Assembly (NCBI RefSeq): GCF_004010195.1
Contig: NC_057718.1
Location: 104,866,158 to 104,930,157, forward strand
Reading direction: 5' to 3'
Source: Chiloscyllium plagiosum
Taxonomy: Eukaryota
DNA: 64,000 nucleotides
Made by a program: the position numbers and the translations under genes. Under the pieces are notes generated by a model. It was not told where the DNA came from. It was given only the letters and a program-made list of their open reading frames with translations, and did not search any database. Below are positions 5,406 to 54,859 of this stretch, piece after piece (positions within the stretch are counted from its first letter, which is position 1; the number at the start of each line of letters is the position of its first letter).

Positions 5406-6376
5406 TTAATCAGAAAAGGCAATAGTCTTGGCCTTTTAATGTGACATAGGAGGAATACTATATTCACCAAGGGCTGGAGGCATCAGCCATGGTGATATGA
5501 GAGAGATAGCAGAGGAACCGAAAGCTGCAGTGAGGGATGTGACAGTGGCAAATGTTGGCAGCTCTCTATGAAACCTGCTGAGTGGGCAGTGCCATGGAAA
5601 AGAGGGGGGGAAGGTATAAGGGAAGAATGCTGTAGTTAAGTCTGTTTAAACGTAAGTGACAGGGGGTGTGTCAGGAACAAAGAGCAAGGATAGTGCACTG
5701 CGATCACAAACACATCACAGATTACTGCTGAGTTTTAATTGCAGTGATGAGTGAGGTGAAATAAGCAGAAAAGGGATTGGAAGGCATGTGACACCAGGTT
5801 ATAGCCCTCCAGGGGGTTTATTCGCTGCTTCTTCACAATTTCACCTGAAGGGAGTGCTCCAAAAGCATGAGAATTCAAATATAACCTGGTGTCATGTGAC
5901 TTCCAAAACCATCCACCCCAGTCCACCATTGGCATCTCCACAAGGAAGAGGTGAGACACAAGGCTATAGATAGGAAAGAATGTGAAATAAACAGGTCCCA
6001 TCTTCAGAGCAGCTACAAATATTGGAAATGCAACTGTGTCTGAATTGGATGAAAGATGATCCCACTGAAGACAGCTGTGCACTGTCAACACGGAATTCAC
6101 TTCAAAACAGAATTACATTGGAGAGTCTTTGTTCAGCTATTCACAAAGAATATCTCCAGTTCAAAGAAAATAAACTGGGTTACACTTGAGACACTTTCAA
6201 GAAGCAGTTCATTGTCAAGGTTCTGTTTCTGGGGAACATCATGTAGATTAAGCACCTTAAATATTAATACAAAAGTATATTTTAATTTTTAATCAGATAC
6301 CCAACTGTTGTGTACACTGCACCATCCCTGGTAAACCTACCTGCTGGATGGGATTTCAAATAATGCGATTCCTTAC

Positions 6377-7951: not shown

Positions 7952-8530
7952 TCCGTGACTCCCTTGTCAGATCCACACCCCCCACCAACCCAACCTCCAC
8001 TCCCGCCACCTTCCCCTGCAACCGCAGGAGGTGCAAGACTTGCGCCCACACCTCCCCCCCTCACCTCCCTCCAAGGCCCCATATCCGCCACAGATTCACC
8101 TGCACCTCCACACACATCATCTATTGCATCCTCTGCACCCGATGTGGCCCCCTCTATATTGGGGAGACGGGCCGCCTACTTGCAGAGCGTTTCAGAGAAC
8201 ACCTCTGGGACACCCGGACCAACCAACCCAACCACCATGTGGCTCAACACTNNNNNNNNNNNNNNNNNNNNNNNNNNNNNNNNNNNNNNNNNNNNNNNNN
8301 NNNNNNNNNNNNNNNNNNNNNNNNNNNNNNNNNNNNNNNNNNNNNNNNNNNNNNNNNNNNNNNNNNNNNNNNNNNNNNNNNNNNNNNNNNNNNNNNNNNN
8401 NNNNNNNNNNNNNNNNNNGAAACGTCGATTCTCCTGTTCCCTGGATGCTGCCTGACCTGCTGCGCTTTTCCAGCAACACATTTCCAGCTCTGATCTCCAG
8501 CATCTGCAGACCTCACTTTCTCCTCAAAGA
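7952..8530 (+). mobile_element. Penelope-like element: GIY-YIG endonuclease fragment plus 3' terminus, split by an assembly gap
   Basis: Reads CNRRRCKTC...FTCTSTHIIYCILCTRCGPLYIGETGRLLAERFREH; after the gap comes the gaaacgtcgattctcctg...cctcactttc terminus shared with 32374-32479. Confidence 0.85.
8252..8418. other. Assembly gap (167 N)
   Basis: Run of N. Confidence 1.
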
Positions 8531-9947
8531 ATTCAATAGTCTTACAAGCAGGTTCGAGTAAGCCCATTCACTGAAACAGTGTGTTTTTCAAAGTAAAGAA
8601 AGCAAAGAAACAGCTCTGACCTTTCCAACCTACAAGTTCAACGTATTGTAAATCATTTGTCAAACCTATTTTCCAGGGAATTTATGTGCACACACTGGCA
8701 AATGTACAAAACCATTAATTTTCATTCATCACAGTCTTGAATATCGAAGTCTGCAACTTTCAATAGAGCAAATAATTTCAGAATTCATCTCAAGGTTATC
8801 AGTCTGCTTTCAACTTCATTAAACTAAATTTGCTGAGGAGACAAAAATGTGAACCCGCCCCAAGATGAAGATCACTTCGACTAAACTAAGTTAGAAACAT
8901 AAGCAAGATGATGGTCCCTGGAAGTGGCAGAAATGCTCTTTGAAAAATAGTCAAAAAGTTATTTAAGTACATAGACATATCCACCATTTAAAATGGTACA
9001 GCTTTGTACAATATCTCCTGAATAAAACAACAAATTGTGCAACCTGTAGTTCAGCAGACTCCACTCCTTAGTCAGCAGGAGCATCACTTGATATTGCACA
9101 CAGTCAGACTGAGACCCAAACGGTCCCAGCTTGTATTCCCAATATCCCACAGTAAGCAAGCTGATCCAAGACATGGTTCTGGCAGAAATACCTCCGTGCC
9201 TCAAAGTGAAGGAATAACAAAAGGGTAAGTTTCTACTTCCTAAATTGGAGACAAAATGTTTCGAATTGTTTGTTTTGCCGTCATGGCACATGCTCGTGAG
9301 TGTCTGTCATGATATTTTTGTTCCCAACTGTTTCTCTGTACCCCCTCTCCGACCTACCACAGAAATATCCTTCAGTACAGAATAAGAGGAATTGATATAA
9401 AGGATAATTATATTCCATTTTTAAATGTGTTTGTTCCTCTGAGCTACTTAACACGGGACCTAATATTAAACATTCACGCCACACAAATACCAGCAATGAC
9501 CACCTCCAATAAGAGATAATCAACCATCAGCTCTTGGTAATCAACTATGCTCCCATTACTGATTTCCCAACATCAACATCCTGGAGATTACCATTGAACA
9601 AAAACTGAACTGGATTAGCCACTTAAATACTGTGGCTTCATAAGCAGGTCAGAGGATAGGAATCCTGCGGCAAACAACTCACCTCTTGACTCCCCAAAGC
9701 CTGTCCATCATCTCCAAGGTACAAATCATATTTGCCCGAATGGGTGTAGCTCCAACAACACTTGAGAAGTTTGACAATCCAGGAGAAAGCAGTCCACCTG
9801 ATTGGCGCCACATCCACACAATCACTCTCTCCACCACTGATGCTCAGTAGCAATAGTGTGTACTATTTACAAGGTGCTCTGAAAATATTTAGACAGCATC
9901 CTTCCAAATCCATTACCACTTCCACATGGAAGGACAAAGACAGCAAA

Positions 9948-26409: not shown

Positions 26410-29400
26410 CTGCATTAAGCAAGCAACAGTTGGCATTAGTCTGAATTATCTTCTTCTCTGGTGTAACCAGATGCACAAAGTACATTTTAATCCAATTAAG
26501 GGACTAGCTATTTGTCACAGGATGCTTCAAGCCCACTGTGGAAGTATGAAGGTAATAGTGAAAATACTCAGCTTGATGTTCAGGTGGCACATTTTTGGTG
26601 TTTAATCATTCAGCATTTCACACCTCCCCAGGACACATCTTTCACTTCCTTGCTGGCTCCATTTCCATTCCTTTTGCATAATTATGTCATTTTACACCTA
26701 ATCACAGATACTTTGTTTGGGTCTTTTCATTGTTGAAAATCTAATACATTTCTAACTTTTACCAATTCTGATTAAAATTCATTGACCTGAAATATTAACT
26801 GTTTCTCTCCAGCAACTACCAGCCTCAGGAGTATTTTCAGCACCTTTTTAAAATCTTCTTGTTTCATATTGGCAGCATCTCCAGTCTTTTGCTTTGGTAT
26901 TGCCAATCCATGGCGGATTGAGCGTGTTTGGTTCACACTTTCCTAGCCATTCCAAGTACAGCTTCCATTCAGCAAAGCAGGAATACAATATCAACACTTT
27001 AGCAGTGGACTCAATACAATCAGGCTCAGAGTTACAGTCAATTTGTTTACAAAAGGACAAAAAAAAACACCATCAGCTACAATATAGATTCCTGATTTCT
27101 CTGCAAATTAGATTTTCTGGAAGCAGATACGAAAGTATGCGCCACAAGTGAGTGAGTCAATTTTCAACAGAGTAAGGGTCATTGTGGCACAGGTGGTGGT
27201 CATTTGGCTCTTCAAGGCAATGCTGGCTTTTCAAGCCCTGTGCTCACAATGAGCATTGCTTACTTTGGCAAGAGATCAAGGAACTATTGGTCATTTGCAT
27301 CACTTTACCTCCAGATCTATCACCAACTCCAGGACAAGAGTCAGGAACCACACCCTGGCATAAATGTCCCACTCTAAAACAGCTAAAAACAACATACCAG
27401 CCTCTATTTCCAGATCTCTGATGGGCTGGAACCAAAGGAGTAAAAGAATAAGGAAGTATTTCTACAATTCTATGGAGCATGGGTGACACCACTTCTCGAA
27501 TGTAAGAGACTTTGATATCCATACTTAAGGATATACTGTTATAATCCCAGCTGGGAAAATCAGCTCCCAATTAGATCATTGGTCATCATTACTCTTTGAT
27601 AAAAGCATGGGTTGCTCACTGAAAAAAACACAGAAGATTGTTGAATTGGTTTTAATAATAAAACATATGCTCATTACACACAATTAAAAATGAAATTAAA
27701 CATGCCAATCTACATTTGGAAGATTTCAAAATTTCATTGCTTTTACAAAAAAAAAGATTTTGCTTTTCAAAGAAAGCAACATCTAAAACAGGACTGATCC
27801 AAACTAGGAGGGAAATTCTTCATTGAATGGCAGATTCAAAACATATTTTCCTCTATTCATTAGATTAAGAGAAGTGAATTCCCGTAACCAACTGAGAATA
27901 GATTTCAAAAGAAAAAGACCTTCTCTAAGAACTTCTGTCTAACCTTTTCCAGCTACCACACTGGTTAAGTTCGGATGACTCCCTGTTCTTTCAGATTAAC
28001 TAGCATGGTGCATGTGCATTTTTGCCTTTAAAATCAACTTACTAAAGCTCAATCTTAATTTTGCTCTTTGCATATCAAATATTTCCATTCACTTTTGTTG
28101 CTCCAACAAAAATAATTTGCTTTCCTTTGGGATATGAGGGACTGGAGTTAAAGGACATTAAGAAATTAGAGTAGGCCATTTGGCCCATCAAGCCTGCTTC
28201 ACCATTCAAGACAATCCTGGCTGATTGGGTAGAAAAATGGAATCAAGAGTGACAATCTCCATATCCTCAATGTCCTGAAGGGCCAAACATCTGCCTATTT
28301 CAGCCTTAAATATATTCAGTGATGTAAGTACACAATGCTGTGGGGTACAGAACTCTAAAGTTAAGTGAATTTCATTGAGTGAAAGACATCCCGCGATTTA
28401 GACTCCCCATCCAGGGAAACACGTCTCAGTACTTCTAATTCGCCGTATAAGGACCTTGTGGGTTGTAATAAGATCACCTCACTCTTTTAAACTCTATTAG
28501 AGGACCAGTGCTCTGGCATGGTCATTAACTGACTTGTCCTCTCTTTTAAAATTTGGAAGCTAAAGACATGCTGTTGGAATCTTTGTTTTGTTGCCATCCT
28601 GGGTTGTGCAGTTGAGATTGATGGAATGAACAACCACCACAAACTCAACACTCGGGCTTATAAAATGTTAGAAAACTAACCTGCAAGAAATATTCATCTT
28701 GGAGGAAAAACTATGATGGCAAGCAGAAGGATTTTCAAAAATTAATTATGGCAACTTGCCTCAATTTTACTTTCTTGTAATTATGGATATGGAAACTTCA
28801 TTTTTCTACATAACATTTTCTTATGGCTTTAGTATCTGATTAATACATTTCCTACTTCTTCCTCTGTTACTACTTTGTGAACATGAAATTTAAACACCAC
28901 AACTGTAACAGACTTGTGCGTATACAGATCACAAAATGTGACACAGGAAGTATGACAGGAGTCTCAGATGCATGAATGCCTCATACAACACTATGTTTTA
29001 GCAGAACTCTTGGGCATTACAATCAACTAAAGGATGCGTCACAGACACGCAACTGTTAGCTGGCATTCAAGGAGAAATCTTACCATCTGTCGTCTTTGTT
29101 TAGCTCCTTTTAACTGGGAGATGGTGGGTGTTTGGGGGAAAGGGTGCTGCAGAGAAAATCAAGCCACGTGGCCCAATGGAAGATGCAGGGCATTTTGAGC
29201 AACAAAATTGGGTCAGCAGTACAAGGTGAGTTAAGGTTCTCTCAGGCTGCTGGTATAGGGTGACAAGTGAATTATCAAAGTCAGGTCTTTGGTGTCTAAA
29301 GCTGTTTAGTAACACAGGGCCTTTTTAAAGCAGAAATGTCTGCAATGTCCATTCACAAGGGCCAAGATTCAATCCCGCATTGCCAGCCCATCCCTCCCAC

Positions 29401-32034
29401 ATTATGTAAGACCTCAAACTCCGATCTACTGCAACAAATACTGATTGCTAACCTCTTCAGGCCTGTATTTTGAACGTAGAACAGCAAAGAAACAGGGCCT
29501 TTGGCCCACTACGTCTGTGCCAAGCATGATGCCATCATAAATTAATTCAATCTGTCTGCACATGGTCTGGATACCTCTATTTCCTGACTGTACACCTGTC
29601 TAAGTGCCTCAAACTTTGCTAATGTATCTGCTTTGACCTCCTCTCCTGGCAGTGATTATCAGGTACCTATAACCCCCCATGTGTAAAAGGTTTCCTTGCA
29701 CATCACCTTTAAACGTTACTCCTCTCACCTTAAACCTATGCCTCTAGTATTTGACATGTCCACGCTGGGAAAAAGACTTCTATTCTCCAGCCTATCCATG
29801 CTGGTCATAATTTTATATACTTCAATCAGATCGCCCCTCTGTCTCAATACCATAGCGAAAACTATCCACGTTTGTCCGACCTCTACTTAAAGCTAATACA
29901 TTCCAATCCAGACAATATCCTGGTAAATCTTTTTGCACCTGCTCACTTGTCATGATCCAACATGACACTGTCCTCAAAGGGTGCCATAAATGACTTACTG
30001 AGCACTTGTAGCAATGTAAAATTTGATAAATCTTCATTTTTCCCTCCAAGATTTTCTCAATTCTGTTTTCTCTTTACAGTTCCCTATATCATCAGACCCA
30101 ACTCAGTATCTTATTTGCTTTCCAGCTTACAGCTAGATCAAAGCACATAAGATAAAGATTAACTAGGGCAGGTTTCACCAATAGGCAGTGGCAAGATATG
30201 GCAGATTTAGGGTAATAGAATGTTAAGAAAAGAAAAGGAGGTTACTAACTTTAGGGTACAGTAGACAGAAAACATGTTTGCAGTTTGTTATTGACAGGGA
30301 TGGTAGAGAAGTCTGAGAGGGAGGGGCTTGTAATGGGGCAGAAAACAGAAAAGAGGTCACAGTGATGGAAAGGAATGGATGTATACCGCAGAATGGCAAT
30401 GAAGATGCAATTAGGCAATACTTAGGATGCATAGGATGGGGAAGGAAACTGCAGGGGATGGGCACAGTCGAAATGTGGAGCCTATTCAAGGACCAGCTAC
30501 TGCTGATTGCCAAGCCTTTGGTTTTGATCTTTATGTCATCATTGTCTACAGGAATAGTGCCAGAAGACTTAAGGATAGCAAATGTTGTTCCCTTGTTCAA
30601 GGAGAATAAAGACAACCTTGTATAATTATAGACCTGTGAGCCTTACTTTGGTTGTGGGTAAAGTGTTGGAAAGGGTAATAAGAGATAGGGTTTAAGATTA
30701 TCTAGAAAAGAATAAGTTGATTAGGGATAGTCAACACAGTTTTGCGAAGGATAGGTCGCACAGCAGGTCAGGCAGCATCCAGGGAACAGGAGATTCGACG
30801 TTTCGGGCACAGGCCCTTCTTCAGGAATGAGCAGAGAGTGTTCAGCAGGAGAAGATAAAAGGTAGGGAGGAGGGACTAAACCCATTGACTGTTCCACCGC
30901 ATGTTTTAATGTGATTATGGTTTTTGCCTGTATTACCCTTTGAACTCGTGGGTTCCAGAACCTCACCACTGATGAGAAAGTTGTTCCAGGTGTCATAGTC
31001 AATATTTTTTCAATAATTAGTACAGCATTTCTTTTTGTGGGAGCTTGCTACATGTAAATTGCCTGCTATGTGTCAACACTGACTGTACTTCCAAAGTACT
31101 TTATTGGCTGTAAAGCATTTTGGATCTTTCTGTGGCCATAACAGTTACTATATAAATGCAATTTAATTTTAATAACTCAATAGTTACTCATAGAAATCTA
31201 ATGTTATATCACTGGGATGCTTTTTTGCCATTATTATGGCAATAATGTTTTTTTCAAATTTAAAAAAAAGTTATGATATTTCAGCTACTTTAATCCCATG
31301 TGTATCACTGATGATTTGTATTTACTCTGTGGAAATTTTAATTGAGTAGAAGATTTTACTGCATTTTACTTTCTGATTTGCTGTTTGAGAATACTTCAGT
31401 GTAATTGGCTGCCAACTCCCTGCGGTGATATCACTGTTACTGTATGCCTAGTGTTTGTCTTGATCTTGCACATATCAAGAAAGGGAAACTTCATGCCTCA
31501 GAGATCACTAGATAGCAGAAAATCCCTTTAATACTTCAAAGTACTCTTTTGGTATGATCCTAGATATTGAATATTGTTAGATATTATTACTGGAGCGAAT
31601 CATAGATTTACATTTAAATAGTTCCCATTTCTGTCTTTGTTCACTCCTTTCCTCAGCAATATTTTGTGTTTGATTTTGTCTACTTTCTGTGGTTTTATTT
31701 ACCCTAATGAAGAAGAGCATATCTTCTCAACATCACAACTATTGATCTCACCCTGCTTGGCTGTTGTATGGAACCCCCTACGTGTTAACCCCTTAAAGCC
31801 AAATACATAACAATATTGTCAAATTTGATGGAATTTTAATGCATTTACTTTAGGGGAAATTTGGCATGTTAATATGCTGCAGTTTTTCTTATCTGCGATG
31901 TTTTGTGTTATGTTGCTGAAAATATTACTGATGAAATACTTAGCAGTTGTAGTAAAATCATGCGTATACTTAGGATGAAGAAGATTATGAGTACCACATA
32001 TGCTTGGTCCAGTTCTTGTTGGATTCATTTGGAT

Positions 32035-32449
32035 ATCAAAGTTGAAACTTTATTGCTGGAACAGCACAGCAGGTCAGGCAGCATCCAGGGAACAGGAGAT
32101 TCGACGTTTCGGGCACAGGCCCTTCTTCAGGAATGAGCAGAGAGTGTTCAGCAGGAGAAGATAAAAGGTAGGGAGGAGGGACTTGGAGGAGGGGCGTTGG
32201 AAATGTGATAGGTGGAAAGAGGTCAAGGTGAGGGTGATAGGTGGGAGTAGGATGGAGGCGGAGAGGTCAAGAAGAAGACATTTCCAACTCCCCTCCTCCA
32301 AGTCCCTCCTCCCTACCTTTTATCTTCTCCTGCTGAACACACTCTGCTCATTCCTGAAGAAGGGCCTGTGCCCGAAACGTCGAATCTCCTGTTCCCTGGA
32401 TGCTGCCTGACCTGCTGTGCTGTTCCAGCAATAAAGTTTCAACTTTGAT
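32035..32449. repeat. 172-bp inverted repeat (32035-32206 / 32278-32449), 2 mismatches, 71-bp loop
   Basis: Direct reverse-complement comparison; it also explains the identical C-termini of ORFs 32074-32301(-) and 32183-32410(+). Confidence 0.95.
32351..32384 (+). ncRNA. Minimal hammerhead ribozyme motif, PLE family B (identical minus-strand copies at 32100-32133 and 30794-30827)
   Basis: ttc-CTGAAGA-a-gggc-ctgt-gccc-GAAAC-GTC-gaa: both core boxes, stem II, stem I (ttc/gaa), palindromic ACGT stem III, GUC triplet. Confidence 0.75.
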
Positions 32450-33537
32450 CTCCAGCATCTGCAGACCTCACTTTCCCCTCGAAGGATAGGTCGCACCTTA
32501 CAATCCTTACTCAGTTCTTGAAAAGGTGATCAAACAGGTAGATGAGGGTAAAGTGGTTGATGTGGTGTATATGGATTTCAGTGGTGTTTGATAAGGTTAC
32601 CCACAGTAGGCTATTGCACAAAATACAGAGGCATGGGATCGAGGGTGATTCAGCGCTCATCTCCACGATACAAACACTTTTCAAGTACAAAACAGTATCA
32701 CCTAGCTTTTGAAACCAAATACTGCCAGACACAATAAATGAATTGAGCCATATTGGGGCACAACAGTATAGGAAGGGTCCTGGGTCCAGCAACAAAGATG
32801 ATAACAGACGAATACTGAGATTTAGCACAATAGGACTCCTGACATCTGATAATACAAGCAATGGATCTTACAGTTAGCAATTGGACTTGTAGCAGTGCAA
32901 CAAGCATCTGATCCCAATGGGTTAGTCTGATTCAAGGTGATGTCGTACCTAACTAATGAATTGCAAAGCATTTCTCCAGAATCAGTGAATTAAGTGCTCT
33001 CATTAAAATTAATTTATTAAACAAATATTAGAATTGCAAACTATTAATATTTAAACGGTTAGCAGAATAGTTAGCAATTTTTGCAATGTTTGGGCAAGTA
33101 TGTCATGTTAAAAGATTACATTGGAATATCTCTCTGGATATTCATGTAATATTAAAGGGTTAAACTGCACTGACTGAACATTCTGGAATTGGGTGGGGAC
33201 GACATTCAGACAGGAATGCAGACGATTTCCCCTCCATTTAGACACAGTCATTTACTACTACTCCCCTACTATTATCAAATTAAACGACCATTCAATCTCT
33301 TCCATTCAGAAATGCTTTAATCACCAACCCCGAAGCTAGGACATATCACACCGGCATTGTTTTGGGGCATCACTGAGTCAGGAAGTCGGCTGCATAACGA
33401 TTCCCCAGGATTAGGGCATTTACATTTGTATTATCTCAGAGGACAATCTAATCCTACCATTGTCCCTGGGGTAACGTGGTGGTGGTGGTGTTGGTAGTAG
33501 ATGAAGCAGAGTTGCTGTGAGCATTTCCAACTGACCT

Positions 33538-36300
33538 GTATAAATCCTCCAACATCCTTGTAAATCTTTTCTGAACCCTTTCAAGTTTCACAACATCCTT
33601 CCCAAAGGAAGGAGACCAGAAATGCATGCAATATTCCAAAAGTGGCCTAACGAATGTCCTGTATAGCCACAACATGACTTCCCGACTCCTGTACTCAATA
33701 CTTTGACCAATAAAGGAAAGCATACCAAACGCCTTCTTCACTATCCTATCTACCTGCGACTCCACTTTCAAGGAGCTATGAACCTGCACTCCAAGGTCTC
33801 TTTGTTTAGCAACACTCCCTAGGACCTTACCATTAAGTGTATAAGTCCTGCTGAGATTTGCTTTCCCAAAATGCAGCATCTCACATTTATCTAAATTAAT
33901 CTTGATTTGCCACTCCTCAGCCCATTGGCTCATCTGATCAAGATCCTGTTGTAATCCTGAGGTAACCTTCTTTGCTATCCACTGCACCTCCAATTTTGGT
34001 GTCATCAGCAAACTTACTAACTATACTTCTTATGCTCACATCCAAATCATTTATATAAAATGATCAAATGTAGTGGGCCCACTACCGACGTCAGGCTCAC
34101 TGGCCTATAGTTTCCTGGCTTGTCCTTACCACCCTTCTTAAACAGTGGCACCACGTTAGCCAACTGCCAACTTTTAGATCTGGTCTATCCCAGCAATCAC
34201 TTCACAAGCTTCCCAGAGTTCTAGGATACACTCGATCAGATCCTGGGGATTTATCTATTTTTAGGCGTTTCAAGACATCCCGCACTTTCTCCACTGTAAT
34301 AAGGACATTTTTCAAGCTGTCACCATATATTTCCTGACATTCTATATCCTCCATATCCTTTGTCACAGTAAGCACTGATGCAAAATACTTTAGTATCTCC
34401 CCCATATTGCTCCACACAAAGGCTGCCTTGCTGATCTTTGAGGGGCCCTATTATCTCACTAGTTACCCTTTTGTCCTTAAATGTATTTATAAAAACTCTT
34501 TGGATTCTCCTTAATTCTATTTGCCAAAGCTATCTCATGTCCCCTTTTTGCCCTCCTGATTTCCCTCTTAAGTATACTTTTACTTCCTTTATACTCTAGG
34601 GTTCACTCGGTCTCTCCTGTCTAGATCTTACATATGCTTCCTTCTTTTTCCTAACCAAACCCTCAATTTCTTTAATCATCCAGCATTCCCTATACCTACC
34701 AGCCTTTCCTTTCACCGTAACAGGAATATACTTTCTCTGGATTCTTATCGCATTTCTGAAGGCTTCCCATTTTCCAGCCGTCCCTTTACCTGCGAACATC
34801 TGCCCCCAATCAGCTTTCGAAAGTTCTTGCCTAATACCGTCAAAATTGGCCTTTCTCCGATTTAGAACTTCAACTTTTAGATCTGGTCTATCCTTTTCCA
34901 TCATTATTTTAAATCTAATAGAATTATGGTCACTGGCCCCAAAGTGCTCCCCCACTGACACCTCAGTCACCTGCCCTGCCTTATTTCCCAAGAGTAGATG
35001 CAAAACGTGACCTTCTCTTGAAGGTACATCCACATACTGAATTTTCAGAAAAATTCAAAAACTTTTCTTCTACACACTTAAATTCCTCTCCATCTAAACC
35101 CTTAACACTATGGCAGTCTCAGTCTATGTTTGGAAAGTTAAAATCCCCTACCATAACCATCCTATTATTCTTACAGATAACTGAGATCTCCTTACAAATT
35201 TGTTTCTCAATTTCCCTCTGACTATTAGGGGGTTTATAATACAATCCCAATAAGGTGATCATCCCTTTCTTATTTCTCAGTTCCACCTAATAACTTCCCT
35301 GTATGTATTTCCGGGAATATCCTCCCTCAGCACAGCTGTAATTCTATCCCTCATCAAAAAGGTCACTTCCCCCTCCTCTCTCGCCTCCCTTTCTGTCCTT
35401 CCTGTAGCATTTGTATCCTGGAACATTAAGCTGTCAGTCCTGTCCATCCTTGAGCCACGTTTCTGTAATTACTATGATACCCCAGCCCCATGTTCCTAAC
35501 CATGCCCGGAGTTTATCTGCCCCTTGCATTGAAATAAATGCAGTTTAATTTATTATTCCTACCTTGTCCCTGCTTGCCCTGACTGTTTGACTCACCTTTG
35601 TTCTCAACTCCTCCCATACACCAGCTCCTCAGCCATACATTGATCTGCTCTATTCTCCTATTCCTGCCCTCACTAGCTCATAGCACCAGGTGTGATCCAG
35701 ATATTACTACTCTCAAGGACCGCCTTTTTAAATTCCTGCCTAACTCTCTGTAATCTCCCTTCAGAATCTCAACCTTTTCCCTTCCTATGTCATTGGTTCC
35801 ACTGTGTACAATGGCCTCCTGCAGGTCCCTCTTCCCCCTGCGGGCATTCTGCACCCTCTGAGACATCCTTGATGCTGGCACCAGGGAAGCAACACACCAT
35901 TCTGATTTTTCACTGCTGGCCACAGAAACGTCTGTCGGTACCTTGGACTAGAGAGCCCCCTAACACAATTGATCGCTTAGAACCCAACATACCTCTCATT
36001 ACATTAGAGCTAGTCACAATACCAGAAACTTGACTATTTGTGCTATCACTCCCTACATTTTCCAAAACAGCAGTCTTGTTCGAAATGGGGATAGCCACAG
36101 AAGACACCTGCACTACCGGCCTACCTCTCTTACCTTTCCTGGAGTTAACCCATCTATGTGCATGTGAGGCTTCCCCCCCACTCCCCTTCCTATAATTACC
36201 ATCCATCATATCCCCTTGCTCTTGTAAATTCCTCATTGCCTTTAACGGCCTCTCCAACGGATCCTTTCAATCTGATAGGATTCACAACCAAAGGCAGTGA
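33538..36300 (-). mobile_element. Long decayed CR1 LINE (ORF1 with esterase-like HSGTND motif, endonuclease and RT pieces, internal deletions)
   Basis: ORFs 35910-36257, 35678-35923 (VHSGTNDIGR), 34596-35033 (EHFGASDHNSIRF), 33454-34011 ([18 protein letters not shown]). Confidence 0.92.
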
Positions 36301-38714
36301 TCAATTAGCAGGTCTAAAACAGCTTGTTCAAGTAGCTCCATAGCATGCTGTTCGGAAAAGCTGCCCCAAATACACTCTAGGAACTCATTTGATTGCAAGA
36401 TTTCTACTCTGTCCTACAATGTAGTCACTTGAAGAACTGTATTCACTGAGATAGGCTAAAAGAGTTCTACGCTTATCTGGAAGAGTCCAGTTCCAGCCAA
36501 TTCAAGCTGCTTGACATCACTCAGGACAAAGTAGCATACTTGATCAGCACCTGAAATATTCACTCCCTTCGCCACCAGCACACATGCGTTAAGATTCCAC
36601 CAATAGCATCTGGCAAACTCTACCATCTACAAGAACAATGGCTGCAGACTACCCATAAGCTCCCCATGTCACTTGTCATCCTTGGCTGTCACTTGGAAGT
36701 AAATCACTTTTTAGTAATTGTTACTGGGTTAAAAATCCCTAATAAGAGTCTGGGCATAAAACTAGCACCTCAAGGTGTCTTACCACCATCTTCAAGGACA
36801 ATGAGGAATAGGTGATGAATGATGGCCCAGCCAGCCACAATCAGAACTCATGAAGGGATTAAACCTTAGCCTGTTTACTTCAAAACAGCGCAGATTTAGA
36901 GACAATATTAGTTAGCATAATTTGAAGATAGGAGGTGTAATATTACTTGAAATAGTTACCCAATGATGGCTAACTACATAACAGCACAGGTTTTCAAATT
37001 TCTGACGGCGAAGAGCATAACCTGCAAGAGGAGCAGCATGGGAATCGGAGATTAATGGAAATCAGGACATTAAAGACAGTGGTCATTTAGTTGGATCAGA
37101 AAACATTAAATCTTTAACTTAAAAACAAAAATTTAGAAAACTATTTATGGAAAGTCTGCTCACAAATATCTAAAGTATTCGATTTCAGGTGGAAAATACT
37201 TGAAGCTGAACTGAAGGAAGAGACTTAATGGGAATAGACAGAAGTCAAAACGCAGTACATCTCTAAAAATACAAAGCTGAGCATTAAAAGAAAACAGCAG
37301 CAATAGAAAGTGTCAACAACCATAGACAGCGCTAAGCACAAGCAGACAATACTAACTTGAGTGGCAGAGATTTCTCATCCATGGCAAGTTTTAGAGCCAG
37401 TCTTTTAGCAACTATTCATCTGCCATTCCACCATCCTCCCTCAATTAGCTGCAAATAATCAAGCTTCAACCCCTTCTCTTTGAGAAAGTGTTGTGTCCCA
37501 TTCTCTGCTGAATAAGACTTAGGCCCTTTACTTTCAGCCCCTGACAAGCATGATCCCACATGCTTCTCTCTCTCTTCCCCCCCCCCAATCATTTGGGTTG
37601 AAACATATCCAGGTACAAAATAAGGGAATAGAAATGGAGTAAACAGTTGTGGACTAAAAGTCAAAAAAACAAAAAAGCTCACAAATATCAGCAAGGGTCC
37701 CAGGAGAAAAATGAATGCACGAGAACAGGAGATATAAAACACAAGCATCCATATGTCCAAATGAGAAGGAAGCAGTTTCACTCCCTATCTTCAGCCCTCT
37801 GAAGGAGATGTTACTGTCCTCCTGGTCCAGATGCAGGGACATTACCATGCACCAGAAGAGCCCCCGCCCCAGTGAGCATTCGTTGCTGCCCTTAAGCCAC
37901 ATAACTGATCAAGAGTGGAATCACCACTGGATCCCATCTACCCAGTGGTTGCATTTGCCATTCCAATGCCACCAAAGAAAGATTAAGCACTTCGCTGCCA
38001 GCTAGACATCAGAACCCAATTAAAGAACCACCACAGGTTTTTGTAGAAATCAAGTTCCATCTTCACAATGGAGAAAGGGAATGTGCCCATTTTCACAATG
38101 ACAACATCTGCTAACCTTGCGATTTGGAACTCAAACCTGGGCAGCAATGAGGGGCAGTGAGTAATCAGCAACATTAACCACAACCTACAACCATTCCATG
38201 AATTACTCAGTGATCATTCTTTTTAGCTCCTCCAAAACCCTCCACAATCTCAGACGCTAATCTTCAATGAATTTAATTCCCACTGTGTCATTAAGAAATG
38301 GCAGAGTGCCTTCAATACAACAAAGACTATGGGTCCCAATCACATCCTAGCTGCAGAACTGATGATACCCCTAGCAGATTTTTGCAGTGCAATGACAACA
38401 CCGGTTGTCACAGATAGTGTGGAAAATTGCCCTGTTGTCGCACTCAGTCTACAAACGCAGGTAACCTCCAAAATGTTGATAGTGGGAGTCAGTGTTGGTA
38501 ATACCATAGAATGTCAAGGGGAATTGGTTGGAATATCTCTTTTGGAGATAAGCACTGGAGCTATTTGCCCATTCCATCAAACATTTGCCATTCCCTTTTT
38601 ATTGACTTTTCACTTTTTTCATGCGATTAGAATAGCAAGGTTGTTGTTTCTGACTGGTATAGACACATATAAGCCAAACAAACAGTCATTTTATGTGCTG
38701 CAGATTGCCACAAA

Positions 38715-39335
38715 ATACAGGACTTGGGAGGTCATATTGCAGCTGCATAGGACATTGATTAGGCCACTTTGGAATAGTGTGCACAATTCTGGCCTCCCTC
38801 CTATATGAAGGGCATGGTGAAACTTGACAGGGTTCAGAAAAGATTTACAAGGATGTTGCCAGGGTTGGAGGGTTTGAGTTAGGAGGGTTTGAGTTAGAAG
38901 GATATGTTGGGGCTATTTTATCTGGAGCGTCAGAAGCTGACAGGTGACCTTATCGAGGTTTATAAAATCATGAGGGGCATAGATTTGGTAAATAGACATG
39001 GTCTTTTCCCTGGGGTGGGGAAGTCCAAAACTAGAGTGCATAGGTTTATGGTGAGAGGGGAAAGATTTAAAAGGGACTTAAGGGGCAACTTTTCCACATA
39101 GACGGTGGTGCGTGTATGGAATGAGCTGCCAGAGGAAGTGGAGGAGGCTGGTACAATTATAACATTTAAAAGGCAACTGGATGGGTATATGAATATGACT
39201 ATGAATAGAAAGGGGTTAGAGGGATATGGGCCACGTGCTGGTAAACGGGACTAGATTTATATAGGACATCTAGTTGGCATGGACGAGCTGAACCAAAGGT
39301 TCCGTTTCCAAGCTGTATCTCCCTATGACTCTACA
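38715..39335 (+). mobile_element. CR1 LINE 3' end
   Basis: LHRTLIRPL..., [14 protein letters not shown]..., tail ctatgactcta. Confidence 0.92.
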
Positions 39336-40797
39336 GTTAAATTTTAGTACCACTTGTGCTGAAGAATTCTATAACTTTCCTATTTATGTTTCCAGCATTA
39401 ATGCAATATTTATGATCCCGTTACCAATTTGACAATCTACACACACCATTTTGCTAGATTTGAACTCTTCAAGATCCTGTGAACCTTTTCTGCCCCTTTG
39501 CTTAGCTATAACTCATCTTCCATAAGAAAATGATCAAAAATAATCCCGCTGCAGTTTAAACAATTGAGAGATTCATTGTAATACCTTACCTTTCTATTCA
39601 TTACCTCTCAGCTGCAAAATCCTAACTCCACTCGTGTTTCATACCTCTGATCTCACTTCTGATAGTGCATTTAGACTGCAAATGCAAAATCGACGCAAAG
39701 TTGTTTTGCTTCACATTGTCTCAGCAGTCAGCATTAACTGAATCTAAACTTCAGGGTTTGTAGCTGTCCTGACACTTTAGCAAAGGCAGATAACATTCCC
39801 TGAAGCAAGCACTCCAACTCATTCTTGACTCAGTGGAGGCCTTAACTTCAAATTCACAAAATACAATTAGAAAAGTGCAGAGCAGAAAACAATCAGCAAT
39901 GTTATAATCTGTAGTTTAAATGAACCTCAAAGACACATTCTTGCCCCGCCTCTGCGCATCGAAAACATTGAAGCCCACGAGGCAGGTACATTCTCTGTTA
40001 GACTGATTATTCAACAAGCAGCTTTATCCTAACTGACATCTGTACATATCTCATATTTCAGAAGATCTGACCCATAAAACATTATAAAATACCATGGGTG
40101 ATGTTCTCAAACATCTGGAGACTTTTGCTGGCTCAATTCTCAATTTCTATCACAATACTACAAATTACTAATTAATAAGTCTTCATAATGCATTTGGAGA
40201 TACAGCATGTCAGTGCAGTTTTGTAGTAATCCACACTGGCAAGACGAACTTTGCATCCACAATTCTCAGATCCTAATTTCCCTATTACACAAACAGAAGT
40301 CAAATAACCTCTGAAGAGTCATCTAGACTCGAAACATTAGCTTGCTCTCTCTCCATGGATGCTGTCTGACCCGGTATGATCTCCAGCATTTGTTTTCAGT
40401 ACTCTCCCTCAGCAAGTGGTTAAAACTATTAGGTGAACTGTTCTCAACTACTGTTGCATAGCCCCTCATATTCAAATATAAAGCTTGGCTTTGGGACCTT
40501 CGTACAGGTTGCTCGTCAAACTGCAATTAAAAGCAAAAGAAACTGATGCAGAGTTTTAAAACGTTAATATTTGTATGTTGTGGTTCTGTTCGCCGAGCTG
40601 GGAATGTGTGTTGTGGACGTTTCGTCCCCTGTCTAGGTGACATCCTCAGTGCTTGGGAGCCTCCTGTGAAGCGCTTCTGTGTTGGTTCTTCCAGCATTTA
40701 TAGTGGTTTGTGGCTATCCTGACACTTTAGCAAAGGCAGATAACCACTATAAATGCCGGAGGAAACAACACAGAAGCGCTTCACAGGAGGCTCCCAA

Positions 40798-40837
40798 GCA
40801 CTGAGGATGTCCCCCAGACAGGGGACGAAACGTCTGC
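40798..40837 (+). ncRNA. Minimal hammerhead ribozyme motif, PLE family C (diverged minus copy 40613-40652)
   Basis: gca-CTGAGGA-t-gtcccc-cagaca-ggggac-GAAAC-GTC-tgc. Confidence 0.75.
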
Positions 40838-41006
40838 AACACAAATTCCCAGCTCGGCGAACAGAACCACAACAACGAGCACCTGAGCTACAAATCTTCT
40901 CAAACTTTGAATATTTGTATGTATCAATACTTTAAAACAAACAAAATCAATAAAATTGATTGATTTGCTGTTCAAGTGCCAACATTTCAAAATCAGCAAC
41001 ACTTAC

Positions 41007-42965
41007 TTGTGACAGAGGTTCTTCAAATGAACTTGTACTTTTAATTGTCATTTCTTCTCCAATGTGGTGAACAGGAGTAGAGTCTACCCAGCCAGTTAAA
41101 TGTTTGACAGTTGAAAGGGCAACTTCTGTCCTGCTGCATTGGCTAATTTCTTCTTTAAAGGCACCAACAGACTGTTCTTCACCAAAGGATGCCCACGATG
41201 TACTTTCAGCCACCGAATCCCCAAAAGCATTCCACTCAGTGTCTTGCTCAGTTGTAAAGTCTTCATCACTTTTGAATCCTGCAAACTCAGACTCATTGTT
41301 ACCTTCCTGAATAGACCCAAATTCTCCAAAATCCTCATCATCTGTCTTTGTAATTGTGGTGGTAGTTCCATGCTCACTAAACTCCAGGCCACTTTCATGA
41401 TAAACAGCAAGTTCTGTTTGAACATCCTTTTCTGCTGGAGATTCAGAAAAATTAGCAAATGTTTGTAGGGAGTCAGCACCCATACTGCCAAAGTCACCAA
41501 ATTCTTCTTTAACACCAGCTTCCTGAAATGTAGCAAACTCTTCTGTTGCCAACTTTGAGGATGTTTTGTTGTCAGAGTTTCTACAATGCATATTTACTGT
41601 TCCAACATCATCCACAGCAGCGGAATTCAACACTGGACTAAAAGCAGCAAAATCAACATCGCCTAAGCACTTGCTTCTTGAAATTTCAAAGTGATCTGAC
41701 TCAATTCCTTCTGTCCTTTGCCCATCAGTCACCAGTGGCTCACCATTGACTGCATGGTCTTGCTCAATCATGGAGGTTCTATGTGCAACACTGTCTGAAC
41801 AAACACCAACATCTTCCTCATTCGGAGTACAGATTTCCAAATCTATTTCTGCTCCAGCTTGCTTTTCACTATATGATTGATCTGCCCTTAATTGAACCTC
41901 TGAACTTTCTATGTTAATGGCTTCTTTCACTATTCCCAAAAATTCATGAACTGGTTGTTCAGCATTTTGGTTCTGAATTTCATTATGCTCCATTGGTTTT
42001 GATGAACTCCAGTCATGATTAGGAAAGCTTGTGTCAGCTGAAGTACTACGGTCAGAGGAGTGGCACTGGGTGTGTTCTATGGCTGCATTTGTCCCAGTCC
42101 CACCCATGCCATTTGAAGCAACTTTCAGCTTATCACCAGCCACTGTAAAGTTCGAACTGACTTGAACATCTGGTAGTTCCCCCAAAGCTGAATGATTGCC
42201 AACATTATGTTCTCCTTTGAGTGGCACTTTGCTGATAGTAGATAGAGATATACTTGATGTTTCTCCTGTTAAATCAGGTTCTTTAACATTTGAAAATGCG
42301 GAGAACTCTGTAAAGTCCTCAATTGGTCCAGGCATGGACTCTGACCAGAGATTGGAAATGTGAGCATTTGTAGCTGTTTGTGCATTTTGATCATTTGTGT
42401 TGACTATACTTTCTATTCCCTGAGAGTGTGTTCTATCATTTGTTGGGTACCCATTTGTCAGAATTTCTGGATTGGCCTTTTTATCATTGCTGAACTCTTC
42501 TGATTCTAAATCTATTGCACGAGCATCCTTGGCCAGACTATCAAATCTAGCAGCTACTTCTGTCAGTTTCATGGATTCCATTGTTTGTTCTGTTGCTGTA
42601 CAATCAAAAACATTTATTGAAGGTTTTGATAGAATTACATCCTTATCAGTACTTATAGTCATGTCATTTAACATTTCTTCTGCAGGTCTGGCGAAATCTG
42701 AAAGAAAGACTTTGCCTTTACTGGTACTTGCTGAATGAAAGTCAGCAAACCCATCTGGATGACTGGAATATGCATGGCCAGGCACAAAATGGTTCGGGGG
42801 CATAAAATTCCCATGGTGATCTTCTAAGTCAAAGTCAGAATAATCAAGCGTTGAACTACCAACTCCTGAAAAACCACCAAATTCACCAAACTCATCATCA
42901 ATTTCAGTTCCATCGTCTAGTGGCGGAGGTGAAGAAGAATACATCCTAATCACATCTGGCTCCAT
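41007..42965 (-). CDS. AFTPH: AFTPH exon 2 coding part (653 codons; exon starts at 42990)
   Basis: Acceptor cttctctttag| at 42991; ATG in aacatcATGG context; donor CAA|GTAAGT at 41006. Acidic protein with repeated FGEF/FGDF/FxxF gamma-ear-type motifs and WNAF/WASF motifs. Confidence 0.98.
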
Positions 42966-44165
42966 GATGTTTCCCCTCAGTTTGTAAGACCTAAAGAGAA
43001 GGAGAGAAGTTAAGAATATTAGAAACCTAAAACTTCATATCTGGGATAAAAATATTACATAACCACTGTTACCAAAAACAAAAATTGCTGGAGATCACAT
43101 TGGGTTAGACAGTACATGCATGGGAAGAGACAGCAAGCTAACATTTCCAGCCAAGATCAGAGCTCTGATGAAGAGTTATCTAGACTTAAAACGTTAGCTT
43201 GCACTCTCTCTCTATGGATACTGCCTGACCCGCCATGATCTCCAGCATTCTTTGCTTTTAGTACAGATTCCAGCATCTAGAGTACTTTTCCCTTCTATAT
43301 TCATTGCTAATCAGATGAGTATAAAACATAAGCATGCTGGAAGTTGACAGTACACAATATTGATATCCCACAATACACTTTCCATGTGAAACTAGGGACA
43401 AATACGACAACTAAAAACACTTAATTTTCCATTTAAATAAGCAAATGCACAACTCTGTTTGAAAGAAATAACTATGAATTCTACAAGTAAATCTTTCCAG
43501 ATAAATACTGATCTTCTGCAGAATTATACACAAAAATCAAGACTAATACTAGTTTTCAGGTGAAGTAGAGTTAAAGGATGGATATAACTGGACAAGAACA
43601 AAACAATTTTGTCTAAGATATTCACTATTAATATTCATCATTTAGCTACAAACATAACACTGATAAAAAAGCAATGTTAGTTTATTCTTTATAAATAAAA
43701 CAGATTAACAGAAAACAGACTAATTCTGTTTTAACATATTCAAAACAGCACTTGGAATTAAAGAAAATCTTCAGAGAAATCACAAGAAAATGAAATATAA
43801 AGGATGTTCTGACAGAACTTGTTATAACCCTGCATTTCTGTTCCAGAGCTACCTGCACAGTTAGTTTGCCAATTCCCATTCTAAGAGTCAAAGTGAAAAG
43901 CCCTGGAAAGGTGCATCTTGCCTGCACAAACATGTCCAAACTGCAAAACGCAGAGCAACAGTGGTGACAAAGCTCAAAACTCAGAAATACAGTCACTCAT
44001 TTGATAGGAGACTAACCAATTATAAACATTACAATCAAGAAAACTTGACAATGCTGAAGTGATAATAAATAATGTATAAACAGTCTGAAGTAATTACACT
44101 TGATAAAAGCAAAGTTAAAAATCACACAACACCAGGTTATAGTCCAACAGGTTTAATTGGAAGCA

Positions 44166-44200
44166 CACTAGCTTTCGGAGCGATGCTCCTTCATCAGGTG
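44166..44200 (-). ncRNA. Minimal hammerhead ribozyme motif, PLE family A (further copies near 11400, 17300, 50030, 51035, 59190)
   Basis: Minus strand cac-CTGATGA-a-ggagc-atc-gctcc-GAAAG-CTA-gtg; palindromic AGCT stem III. Confidence 0.72.
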
Positions 44201-44939
44201 ATTGTAAGGAGCGTCGCTCCGAAAGCTAGTGTGCTTCCAATTAAACCTGTTGGACTATAACCTGGTGTTGTGTGATTTTTAAACTTTGTACACCGGCATC
44301 TCCGAATCATTTAGAAAAGCAGTAAGGTTGGACTGGACTCTTAGTTGCAAGAAGATACTGTTAGAAGGTAAATGAGATGATAACGCTTGCAAATTAATTC
44401 AAAGTGATTTGAAGCATTTAGAGCCTAACTAATCAAAGAAAAGCAAATTAGGATGAGCAAAAGATTTTAAATTGAACAAGAAAATTGTCTAATTTTAGTT
44501 TACAAGGAGCTATTAAAATACAACTAGTTAGTGTAATGGTTAATTGCTCAATTCATATAAAATGCTGAATATCTTAGTTGCTCCGCCTACACTTTTATAT
44601 GAAATTTGTGTGTTTCTGCTGTGCTGCAATGCAAGTGGGAGACAATTTTACAAAAATGTGCCAGAAGTGCAAACTACTCTGCAAATCAGTAAAAAAAAAT
44701 CCAATCAAAACAGCTCAAACACTTCCTGTGGCAAAAACAGCATTTCAGCTTATTCAGTATGGTTATTTCAGCAACAATGTTAGAAAGAAATGCATAAACA
44801 AAGTACACAGATTCAATGAAGGCATACCCCTTTTTAATTGAATATCCTGAAATTTTACAATGCACTTTATTGATGTGATTTCATCAGTTTAGCAATGCTA
44901 AACTACATATTCCTACATTTTCTATGTCTTTTCTGCAAT

Positions 44940-47709: not shown

Positions 47710-49520
47710 TGAGCCTGACGTCGATGGTGGGCAAGTTGTTGCAGGGAATGCTGAGGGATACGATGTACATGTATTTGGAAAGACAAGGATTAGGGATAGT
47801 CAACATGACTGCATGGGAAGTCATGTCTCACATTCTTGATTGAATTTTTTGAAGTAACAGAGGATTAATGAGGGTAGAGCATTAGATGTGATCTAGATGG
47901 ACTTCAGTAAGGCGTTCGACAAGGTTCCCCATGTGTTTTAAAAAATTCTCAAGGTTTTCACCACATTCCATTGCTTGGCCCAATACATGTGTTACATTAT
48001 GATTCACACATGTATTGGGACATAATTTTAACCCTTTCACCACACCATGTGAGACTGGTGAGCAAGGTTAGATCTCACGGATTACAGGGAGAACTGGCCA
48101 TTTGGATACAGAACTGGCTCGAAGATAGAAGACAGAGGGTGGTGGAAGGTTATTTTTCAGTTTGGAGGCCTGTGACCAGTGGAGCGCCACAAGGATCGGT
48201 GCTGGACCTACTACTTTTTGTCATTTATATAAATGGATGTGACGATAGCAGATGACACCAGAATTGGAGGTGTAGTAGACAGTGAAGATGATTACCTCAG
48301 ATTACAACCGGATCTTTATCAAAGGGGCCAATGGACAGAGGAATGGCAGATGGATTTTAATGCAGAAAAAATGTGAAATGTTGCATTTGGGAACACAAAT
48401 TGTCGCAGGACCGAGATACTTTATGGTAAGATCCTAGGGAGTGTTGCTGAACAAAGATACCTTAGAGGCATGTTCATAGCTCCTTGAAAGTAGAGCTGCA
48501 GGTAGATAGCATAGTGAAGGTGGCATTGGGTATGCTTACCTTTATTGGTCAGAGCATTGAGTAGGAAAATCGACTTTTCGGGCAAAAGCTCTTCATCAGG
48601 AGAGGAAGAGAACTTCTTCAAGGTAGGCATCCTTGCAAGAGGATTCGCAGTAAGGTTAAAATCAACTAGGCAAAAAAATGAGGACTGTAGATGCTGGAAA
48701 TCAGAGTCTAGATTAGAGCATTGAGTACAGGAGTTGGGAGGTCATGTTGCAGCCGTATAGAATGATGGTCAGGCCACTTTTGGCCAATTCTGGTCTCCTT
48801 CCTATTGGAAAGATGTTGTGAAACTTGAAAGGGTTCAAAAAAGATTTACAAAGATGTTGCCAGGGTTGGCAGATTTGAGTTATAGGGAGAGGCTTGGAAA
48901 TCAGAGTCTAGATTAGAGCATTGAGTACAGGAGTTGGGAGGTCATGTTGCAGCCGTATAGAATGATGGTCAGGCCACTTTTGGAATGTTGCATGCAATTC
49001 TGGTCTCCTTCCTATTGGAAAGATGTTGTGAAACTTGAAAGGGTTCAAAAAAGATTTACAAGGATGTTGCCAGGGTTGGCAGATTTGAGTTATAGGGAGA
49101 GGCTGAACAGGCTGGGGATATTTTCCCTGGAGTGGAGGCTGAAGGGTGACCTTATAGAGGTTTATAAAATCAGGAGGGGCATGAATAGGATAAACAGACA
49201 AAGTTGTTGGAGTCCAGAACAAGAGGGCATAGGTTTAGGGTGAGGGAGGAAAAGATATAAAAGAAACCTAAGGGGCAAAGTTTTCACGCAGAGGGTGGTG
49301 CGTGTATGGAATGAGCTGCCAGAGAAATTGGTGGAGGCTGGTGCAATTGCAACATTTAAAAGACATCTGGATACGTATATGAATAGGAAGGGTTTGGAGG
49401 AATATGGTCCAGGTGCTGGCAAGTGGAACTAAATTAGATTTGGATATCTGGTCGGCATGGACAGGTTGGACCGAAGGGTCTGTCTCCTTGCTGTACATCT
49501 CTGCGACTCTATGACTCAGA
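47710..49520 (+). mobile_element. CR1 LINE RT/3' region with nested PLE terminus (~48564-48714) and an internal tandem duplication
   Basis: VSLTSMVGKLL, WRPVTSGAPQGSVL, VRPLLECCMQFWSP fragments; AGAGCATTGAGTA duplicated around the nested insert. Confidence 0.9.
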
Positions 49521-53710: not shown

Positions 53711-54859
53711 TATTTGTTGTCTCGGGCTTAAAAGAGGAGAAAAGCAATCAATATAAATTCAGTCCCCCTTTATTAGTGACAAATTATCAAAGATTAAAAA
53801 CATTTCTACTGTGTCTGCAATGGAAAATAAGTTCTACACTTTTTACCTGTCTACAACAAAAAATTCTAATTTGAATTAGATACAAACTAAAAAGCACTTG
53901 GATGAATAGCGAATAACATGTCATGCTTGGATTACAGAAAATATAGAATGAATTTTAGAACAAGGTAACAAAGCTTACAAGAAACAAATATTCATACAGC
54001 TGAATTCAACCCACAACACCAAGTAGTTTGCAGGTACTTTTAATGCTTTCAAAGTATAGTATAGCTTCAGATAGCAGACAATGATGAGTGCTTTGCAATG
54101 GTGACAGAGATTACATATGACCACAATAAAACCACCATCCTTCTGAACCCCCAAAATAAAATGAGGGCATGGTCATTGCCAAACATCTATGTTTTGATTG
54201 ATGTTTGTTGGTATTGTTTCTTTCCACCAACAGCAGAGATGATGAGTACAAACCAATGTGCCATTGTATAAACAATGCAGTCGTTGCAGTTTTACAAAAT
54301 AGCGACCATTAGTATATATATATATGTAGACTCAAATAGGTATTTCAACTGAACAGAATGGTGTGCAACCTGTCACAGCGAGAATGGAGGGCTACAAACA
54401 GAGGAAAACACTTGCTTAAAAATTATGCAGACTTTACACAGACATTATAAAAGATAAGATTTCGCTTAAGAAATAATTTCAACCTGTTAGATCTGACAAA
54501 GGGCAAGGTGGAAAAGGCCCAATTGTACTCAAATCGATCAGTGTACATAATTACTGCAGCATGAACTAAAAGGAAGTAGTGGGGGGGGAAAAACAGTTGT
54601 ATGAATATTTCTATTTCTTGTAAACTTTGTTAACTTATTCTAAAATTCATTCTATATTTTCTGTAATCCAAGCATGACATGTTACCTGCTATTCATCCAA
54701 GTACTTTTTAGTTTGTATCTAATTCAAATGTGTAAAACTTATTTTCCATTGCAGACACAGTAGAAATGTTTTTAATCTTTGTGTATTTGTCACTGATCAA
54801 GGGGGAATTGAATTTATATTGATTGTTTTTCTCCTCTTTTAAGCCCGAGACAGCAAATA
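53711..54859. repeat. Diverged ~270-290-bp inverted duplication (53711-54002 / 54594-54859)
   Basis: For example, tgtctcgggcttaaaagaggagaaaa and catgtcatgcttggattacagaaaatatagaatgaattttagaa reappear reverse-complemented. Confidence 0.9.

Follow-up and report, generated by a model that had tools for sequence, protein, structure and literature searches.

By what route do Penelope-like elements (PLEs) capture host DNA? The cases from rotifers have been read as movement of a unit that was already flanked by element ends. We address this question at one locus of the shark Chiloscyllium plagiosum, in a stretch of 64,000 nucleotides (nt) of contig NC_057718.1 (positions 104,866,158 to 104,930,157; hereafter the window), where three PLE end pieces and a segment of apparent host DNA interrupt a decayed long interspersed nuclear element (LINE). 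Since the donor alleles and all junctions are legible to the base, the shark case gives a clean test of capture versus re-mobilisation. The reading we favour, tentatively and at a little under an even chance, is one recent PLE integration in the course of which synthesis switched from the PLE RNA to a distant host template, copied it and then resumed on the PLE RNA. The parts of the composite are as follows.

30400-30761, plus strand: decayed LINE reverse transcriptase (RT), part left of the insertion, from the RVT_1 protein alignment; left boundary approximate.
30745-30761, plus strand: left copy of the target-site duplication (TSD), 17 nt; microhomology with the PLE end over its final 4 nt.
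30758-30877, minus strand: PLE2, a 120-nt PLE end piece identical to 32064-32183; hammerhead core 30797-30824.
30876-32036, no strand assigned: cargo, read as host DNA copied from a locus that lies beyond the window; overlap of 2 nt with PLE2 and of 2 exact (6/7) nt with PLE1.
32035-32285, minus strand: PLE1, the inverted arm, 251 nt; hammerhead core 32103-32130; unpaired high-copy upstream part 32207-32277.
32278-32285, no strand assigned: pivot, 8 nt common to both inverted arms.
32278-32479, plus strand: arm B, a 202-nt PLE end with a 31-nt tail; hammerhead core 32354-32381.
32480-32496, plus strand: right TSD copy, 17 nt.
32480-32643, plus strand: decayed LINE RT, part right of the insertion, from the RVT_1 protein alignment.

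Is the composite one bounded insertion? The two TSD copies are identical and can be extended in neither direction, and their 17-nt word occurs just twice in the 64-kb window. The chance of such a match is about 2e-7, even with ±20 nt of play at both edges. Between the copies lie 1,718 nt, made up of PLE2, the cargo, PLE1 and arm B. Residues 65-109 of a shark RT protein (P0001, Pfam RVT_1) align up to 30758 and residues 106-160 align from 32482; residues 106-109 are therefore duplicated across the TSD, as the alignment covers them on both sides. An initial annotation, made from the letters alone, had proposed an exact 17-bp TSD interrupting a LINE RT, and the identical words, unique as a pair in the window, together with the duplicated residues confirm it. 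The CR1 label given to this LINE follows a reading of its motifs; the analysis itself gives only an RVT_1 LINE, and the four LINE fragments gave no Pfam match above the cut-off.

The three PLE pieces are nearly identical, as had been claimed: PLE2 agrees with PLE1 (32064-32183) at 120 of 120 positions and with the plus copy at 119 of 120, and PLE1 and arm B show two internal differences over 172 nt. One of these two differences falls inside PLE2, which has the letter of PLE1 there. A-to-G editing was considered as the source of the two mismatches and rejected, as the pattern does not fit. The order of pieces in the initial annotation holds, whereas its boundaries move. Its second minus piece occupies 32035-32285, including 71 nt (32207-32277) without a partner and the 8-nt overlap with the plus arm; its left minus terminus, put at 30762-30877, is a real piece that starts earlier, since PLE2 overlaps the left TSD copy by 4 nt.

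By motif scan, all three pieces contain a complete minimal type I hammerhead core with stems I and II. The hammerhead is the lowest-energy fold in two of the three, yet no better than in shuffles; the palindrome of stem III is predicted to pair weakly (-3.1 kcal/mol), unconstrained cofolding of the hammerheads did not give the dimer form, and an Rfam scan of the window returned 0 matches at gathering score. When the full minus-strand RNA is folded, the PLE1 core is predicted to pair with arm B over 28/28 nt within a 172-bp hairpin, and the PLE2 core does not adopt the ribozyme fold in this model.

The composite insert contains no open reading frame (ORF). We assign it to PLEs because of the hammerhead motif, the layout of arms and tail, and a sister end that lies behind a weak GIY-YIG match. 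This sister end (8419-8532) is 89% identical to arm B over 114 nt and follows, across an N gap, a GIY-YIG frame at 7951-8250 whose Pfam match (E=7e-4, 20.2 bits) stays below the 22.6 cut-off. The PLE at 7951-8532 has a Cys-rich stretch and the GIY-YIG frame, split by the only N gap of the window (8252-8418, 167 N), and its reading against the excerpt of PMC3846280 suggests a Neptune-like element. Four further short PLE-type fold-back inserts, of at least two families, are located at 44112-44312, 7584-7733, 5777-5940 and 43070-43290.

The arm ends were compared with the PLE family in contigs from four of 24 listed public runs, three conspecific (X1, X5, X8) and one from a related species (X11); samples with a cargo word share near 0.2 (species C, X20) were left out. 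Position 32479 is the common 3' end of the family, with loose ends behind it in 131, 75, 42 and 99 contigs of the four runs, and this shark genome holds a great abundance of PLE ends, with recent activity. The start of PLE1 is 30-31 nt away from this end, at the usual tail-less end; the inverted arm is truncated, and the tail is on one arm only. Among five other fold-backs in the window, three gave a TSD, with offsets of 27-30, 34 and 35 nt, the two without a convincing TSD being left out of the comparison. The offset of PLE1 fits these fold-backs and the published tail of 30-40 nt (PMC3846280, PMC8557442, PMC11167929; these and the papers below are cited from excerpts), and it also agrees with the two RT start sites of the Anolis element (PMC11167929). 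PLE1, the pivot and arm B are the usual PLE fold-back unit. PLE2, in contrast, starts at a non-canonical point 59-63 nt short of the family 3' end, at the 4-nt match to the target end.

This contrast between a canonical PLE1 and a non-canonical PLE2 speaks for re-mobilisation by 5' transduction, the main rival reading, though one that we consider rather unlikely. Here, the fold-back of PLE1, pivot and arm B would first have inserted at the right end of the cargo in this lineage's donor locus. A host transcript of the plus strand running through it, bound at the tail of B, would then have been copied over 1.6 kb, with PLE2 as a new short inverted arm. The trans-mobilisation model in the excerpt of PMC3846280 is of this kind.

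What, then, is the cargo? The cargo proper (30878-32034) covers 1,157 nt, has a GC content of 34% and occurs once in the 64-kb window, in agreement with the initial annotation, and its source therefore lies more than 29 kb away. From sequence comparison, we regard it as old, single-copy host DNA from a locus elsewhere in the genome. Its plus strand is T-rich (446 T versus 319 A, p=5e-6), and the host intron at the insertion has the opposite skew (-0.04 to -0.09). This also favours re-mobilisation from a plus-strand transcript, as the plus strand of the cargo resembles an intron sense strand. Summed contig depth reaches 59-197 at 31090-31203 against 7-20 across most of the remaining cargo, which points to an old repeat remnant near 30976-31203. 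The description of the cargo as 'non-element' therefore stands in so far as it is host DNA, and fails for this remnant.

None of eight cargo frames matched Pfam above the cut-off. One candidate exon (31974-32036, plus strand, after a TAG) was rejected, as all five listed changes in the related species alter the protein, and no conserved exon was found from frames against Pfam and changes against the related species. The holders of cargo words listed in a public-run word search include no RNA run. The cargo shows no coding role, and this copy probably has no biological effect. We notice that the differences from the related species are unevenly spread: of the 34, 31 are listed, and successive thirds of the cargo hold 4, 7 and 20 of these (p about 0.001). 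Since the left third, which is the conserved one, coincides in part with the old repeat remnant, a constrained element may have been duplicated.

Public runs point to the donor. The share of cargo words is 0.97 in one conspecific sample, 0.71-0.73 in three others and 0.38-0.42 in a related species. Donor contigs occur in four of the four runs, spanning both cargo ends in two and the right end in one more. A 3,236-nt contig of X1 (record 4) matches 30876-32036 with one difference and continues for 272 and 1,803 nt beyond, unlike the window. The related species gives a 3,903-nt contig (X11, record 13) that matches the same interval with 34 differences and 5 gaps and extends 935 and 1,802 nt beyond. 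An X5 contig (record 19) passes the right end of the cargo by 954 nt, again unlike the window, and X8 contigs reach neither end. No PLE end adjoins the cargo on the sampled donor alleles (both ends in X1 and X11, the right end in X5), since a match would otherwise continue into PLE1 or PLE2; this test is blind to a PLE farther from the cargo or less than 90% alike. Contigs demonstrate presence, never absence, and contig depth is not taken as copy number.

Transduction from a donor beside a family-B PLE, one outcome that the initial annotation envisaged, is not what these contigs show at the cargo edges. Nor is the cargo seen free of PLE ends at the orthologous position, an outcome that the annotation had set against its own reading: the PLE-free copies lie at another locus, outside this LINE. 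For re-mobilisation, a distant donor suits an RNA intermediate, whereas the PLE-free right end in 2/2 informative conspecific runs and in the relative means that the donor insertion must be unfixed.

The copying appears very recent, since the differences between cargo and conspecific donor, 1/1161, 3/1004 and 3/900 (0.09, 0.30 and 0.33%), are at the allele level of the flanks, which differ by 4/1014, 3/799 and 1/680 (0.39, 0.38 and 0.15%) in three conspecific runs. By comparison, the cargo differs from the related species at 34/1161 positions, and the divergence of that relative is 2.9-3.2%. The insertion is probably polymorphic. As a separate observation, the letters of the window at 30009, 30324 and 31515 are absent from every covering run compared, including the related species; they may be alleles private to the source animal, or errors of the assembly.

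Two further explanations bear on these contigs. That the composite is one copy of a multi-copy, non-autonomous, PLE-mobilised (retrozyme-like) element of this lineage would suit its two direct PLE ends, which have intact hammerhead cores, are spaced by 1,306 nt and lie on the strand transcribed by the host gene. We judge it improbable: in each of the four runs the cargo assembles into single contigs of low depth (6.9-14.3 versus 5-18.8 in the flanks, depth not being copy number), it is 1-3 changes from the donor alleles, the unit has no tandem array, and the PLE1 core is predicted to be fully paired with arm B in the full minus-strand RNA. The other explanation takes two steps. A PLE event at the donor would have joined the cargo ends through 147 nt of PLE, as a circle or tandem duplication, and the circle would then have entered, by recombination, the 120-nt arm of a fold-back that the LINE already carried. 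This accounts for a direct repeat of exactly the shared stretch and for the canonical start at the right end of the cargo, but requires two private events and a crossover within 120 nt; moreover, no donor rearrangement is seen among the contigs of the runs compared, and we hold it to be highly improbable.

Capture during a single integration could have proceeded as follows. The GIY-YIG nuclease of the element would make two cuts in the LINE, staggered by 17 nt. Arm B would be primed by the bottom-strand end from the tail of the RNA, and the top-strand end, pairing by 4 nt within a PLE RNA, would be extended over 120 nt to give PLE2. From PLE2, synthesis would jump through 2 nt onto a distant host template and copy 1.16 kb; the new end would be handled as a target primer, with a restart at the usual tail-less site that yields PLE1. 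Finally, both growing strands would join at the 8-nt pivot. Sequence is shared at each junction, with 4 nt between TSD and PLE2, 2 nt between PLE2 and cargo, 2 exact or 6/7 nt between cargo and PLE1, and 8 nt at the pivot. The junctions and the PLE-free donors are observed; in what order the steps ran, and what served as the template, is inferred. DNA is a likelier template than RNA, because the template would be the minus strand, and the T-rich, intron-sense-like strand of the cargo is the plus strand. A purified PLE of Anolis, predicted to form a dimer, cleaves both strands and extends them from two internal sites of the RNA (PMC11167929), and L1 has been documented to switch templates and to leave templated genomic inserts (PMC11702581; 10.1101/2024.08.27.596794). 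From the single event of transduction or capture first proposed, a PLE-made insertion with host DNA between ribozyme-bearing ends is retained, and simple transduction is not supported on the alleles sampled.

The identity of PLE1 and PLE2, with the shared allele that distinguishes both from arm B, is as expected from one RNA copied twice. Several points weigh against capture. This identity is weak evidence, as zero differences in 120 nt has P=0.25 at the B/PLE1 divergence. The entry microhomology is just 2 nt, with a chance of about 0.07. The donor lies more than 29 kb away, and templated inserts of L1 are, in the excerpts, typically <250 bp and within 15 bp. A PLE-bearing donor allele could exist in the source animal or be masked in a heterozygote. 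PLE1 and arm B alone resemble an ordinary fold-back with the cargo as its left flank, and the odd start of PLE2 beside this ordinary-looking pair fits re-mobilisation. Re-mobilisation in turn has to explain why PLE2 has the allele of PLE1 and not that of B, though B would be the sole PLE-sense part of a plus-strand RNA, and how the RT traversed a 172-bp RNA stem.

One more point against capture is that no contig among the matches listed bridges any junction of the composite. With regard to an empty allele at the target site, flank contigs stop at 30449 and resume at 32621, leaving the middle of the LINE unbridged among the matches listed. The lack of a listed contig across the composite, the perfect 120-nt direct repeat and the 167-N gap in the sister PLE (8252-8418), which shows that this repeat class broke the assembly nearby, would suit an assembly loop. 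In that case the LINE would in truth hold a simple fold-back, about 410 nt long, and the identical 120-nt repeat would have led the assembler round a loop of 1,306 nt, made up of the cargo and 147 nt of PLE and genuine at some other locus. We regard this as very unlikely. Both cargo junctions must still be real PLE-made joins at a second private locus, the exons of the host gene run through the window intact and in their proper order, and the TSD and arm ends are biologically canonical.

Under the favoured capture reading, the most likely product is an intronic insertion that is inert and polymorphic. PLEs would then, if capture holds, offer a route by which unspliced host DNA is dispersed in cartilaginous fishes. 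A stronger version, which we think improbable, is that a single PLE integration can copy unspliced DNA, kilobases long, from a distant locus free of elements and equip the copy with full mobilisation signals. The insert would then be a just-born non-autonomous element, with cargo between two PLE pseudo-long terminal repeats (pLTRs), whose RNA could be excised through the hammerheads 1,306 nt apart, circularise and spread. If true, it would replace the model of a pre-flanked unit moved in trans for gene capture by PLEs and would show the origin of retrozyme-like families in vertebrates.

The composite lies in an aftiphilin-like gene, which spans 3634-43034 on the minus strand; the insertion is intronic.

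26419-41000, minus strand: intron of the aftiphilin-like gene, flanked by its large exon (40947-43034) and by the exon at 26418-26260; the upper boundary is approximate.

ORF 40947-43034 is the large exon, with its best match in Chiloscyllium punctatum (94%), and the coding exons follow in order, all complete, down to 3634. The gene transcribes the minus strand, on which the two same-strand hammerheads lie at a distance of 1,306 nt. A fold-back of another family (40566-40922), with an exact 13-nt TSD and a 35-nt tail, is located a short way downstream of the large exon. Elsewhere in the window, a LINE at 48564-48983 contains a minus-strand piece resembling a PLE (about 48564-48707), after which LINE sequence is exactly duplicated (48695-48783 = 48895-48983, 200-nt spacing), which may be another PLE-linked rearrangement or an assembly slip. 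An AT-rich element at 53869-54729, resembling a miniature inverted-repeat transposable element (MITE), has 123-nt inverted ends (92%) placed 615 nt apart.

How does the composite compare with known systems? Ordinary insertions of endonuclease-bearing (EN+) PLEs consist of an inverted, 5'-truncated copy and a tail of 30-40 nt (PMC8557442; PMC11167929). PLE1, pivot, arm B, tail and TSD are the same unit, and the minimal type I hammerhead with a palindromic stem III is likewise shared (PMC4209133). The shark insert differs by an extra 1.27 kb, PLE2 and cargo, between the left TSD copy and the inverted arm. We found no published case of PLE capture of host DNA in sharks, in search listings with the subscription literature largely outside them.

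Retrozymes, as described in the excerpt of 10.64898/2026.07.22.740005, are also non-coding units with hammerheads in direct repeats and are kin to PLE pLTRs. The shark insert, however, has neither a tandem array of ribozyme units nor LTR-type features: a TRF tandem-repeat scan (period up to 500) found only a 13-nt repeat, and direct repetition covers just 120 nt of the 1,306-nt unit. There is no sign of many copies in the runs compared, and one core is predicted to be sequestered. Non-LTR retrozymes consist of tandem repeats with a type I hammerhead in every unit; LTR retrozymes have a type III hammerhead in their LTRs, a PBS and PPT, and a 4-bp TSD, against a type I core and a 17-nt TSD here. 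By the published definitions in these excerpts, the composite is not a retrozyme. The retrozyme likeness suggested earlier is not supported beyond the shared hammerhead, given the lack of an array, the TSD of 17 and not 4 nt, and one hammerhead predicted to be locked in the 172-bp hairpin.

L1 twin priming (PMC11702581; 10.1101/2024.08.27.596794) likewise extends both target ends with template switches and keeps a discrete TSD, and shows microhomology at the secondarily primed end; the shark insert is without poly(A), depends on another nuclease, and has a longer and more distant template than most L1 inserts. Related chimeras, namely tripartite LINE chimeras (PMC2104539) and templated sequence insertion polymorphisms (TSIPs; PMC5110952), also switch between templates and keep the TSD. 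LTR-mediated retroposition by a double template switch (PMC5131818) similarly gives host sequence between element ends with short shared sequence at the switches, but its cargo is a spliced mRNA in a virus-like particle, whereas here unspliced non-coding DNA is joined to a PLE. The shark insert resembles L1 twin priming and LTR-mediated retroposition in its working and belongs to neither.

The layout itself, two direct ends, one inverted end, a TSD and host DNA, is already described in rotifers (Arkhipova et al., 2013). The excerpt of that study on Adineta vaga (Arkhipova, Yushenova, Rodriguez 2013, PMC3846280) reports host DNA between Penelope pLTRs, including non-coding captures between solo pLTRs and host spacers of 0.9-1.5 kb in Pen1. 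Both systems place two direct pLTRs and one inverted pLTR around host DNA within one TSD, with the source of the cargo elsewhere. The shark insert differs in its vertebrate host, in a TSD of 17 nt against 8-10 nt, and in a single-copy, non-coding cargo whose donor alleles are traced and free of PLE ends; its 3' direct repeat is, moreover, shortened at both ends. The A. vaga layout is read there as trans-mobilisation of a pLTR-flanked unit; for the shark, capture at the time of integration fits slightly better.

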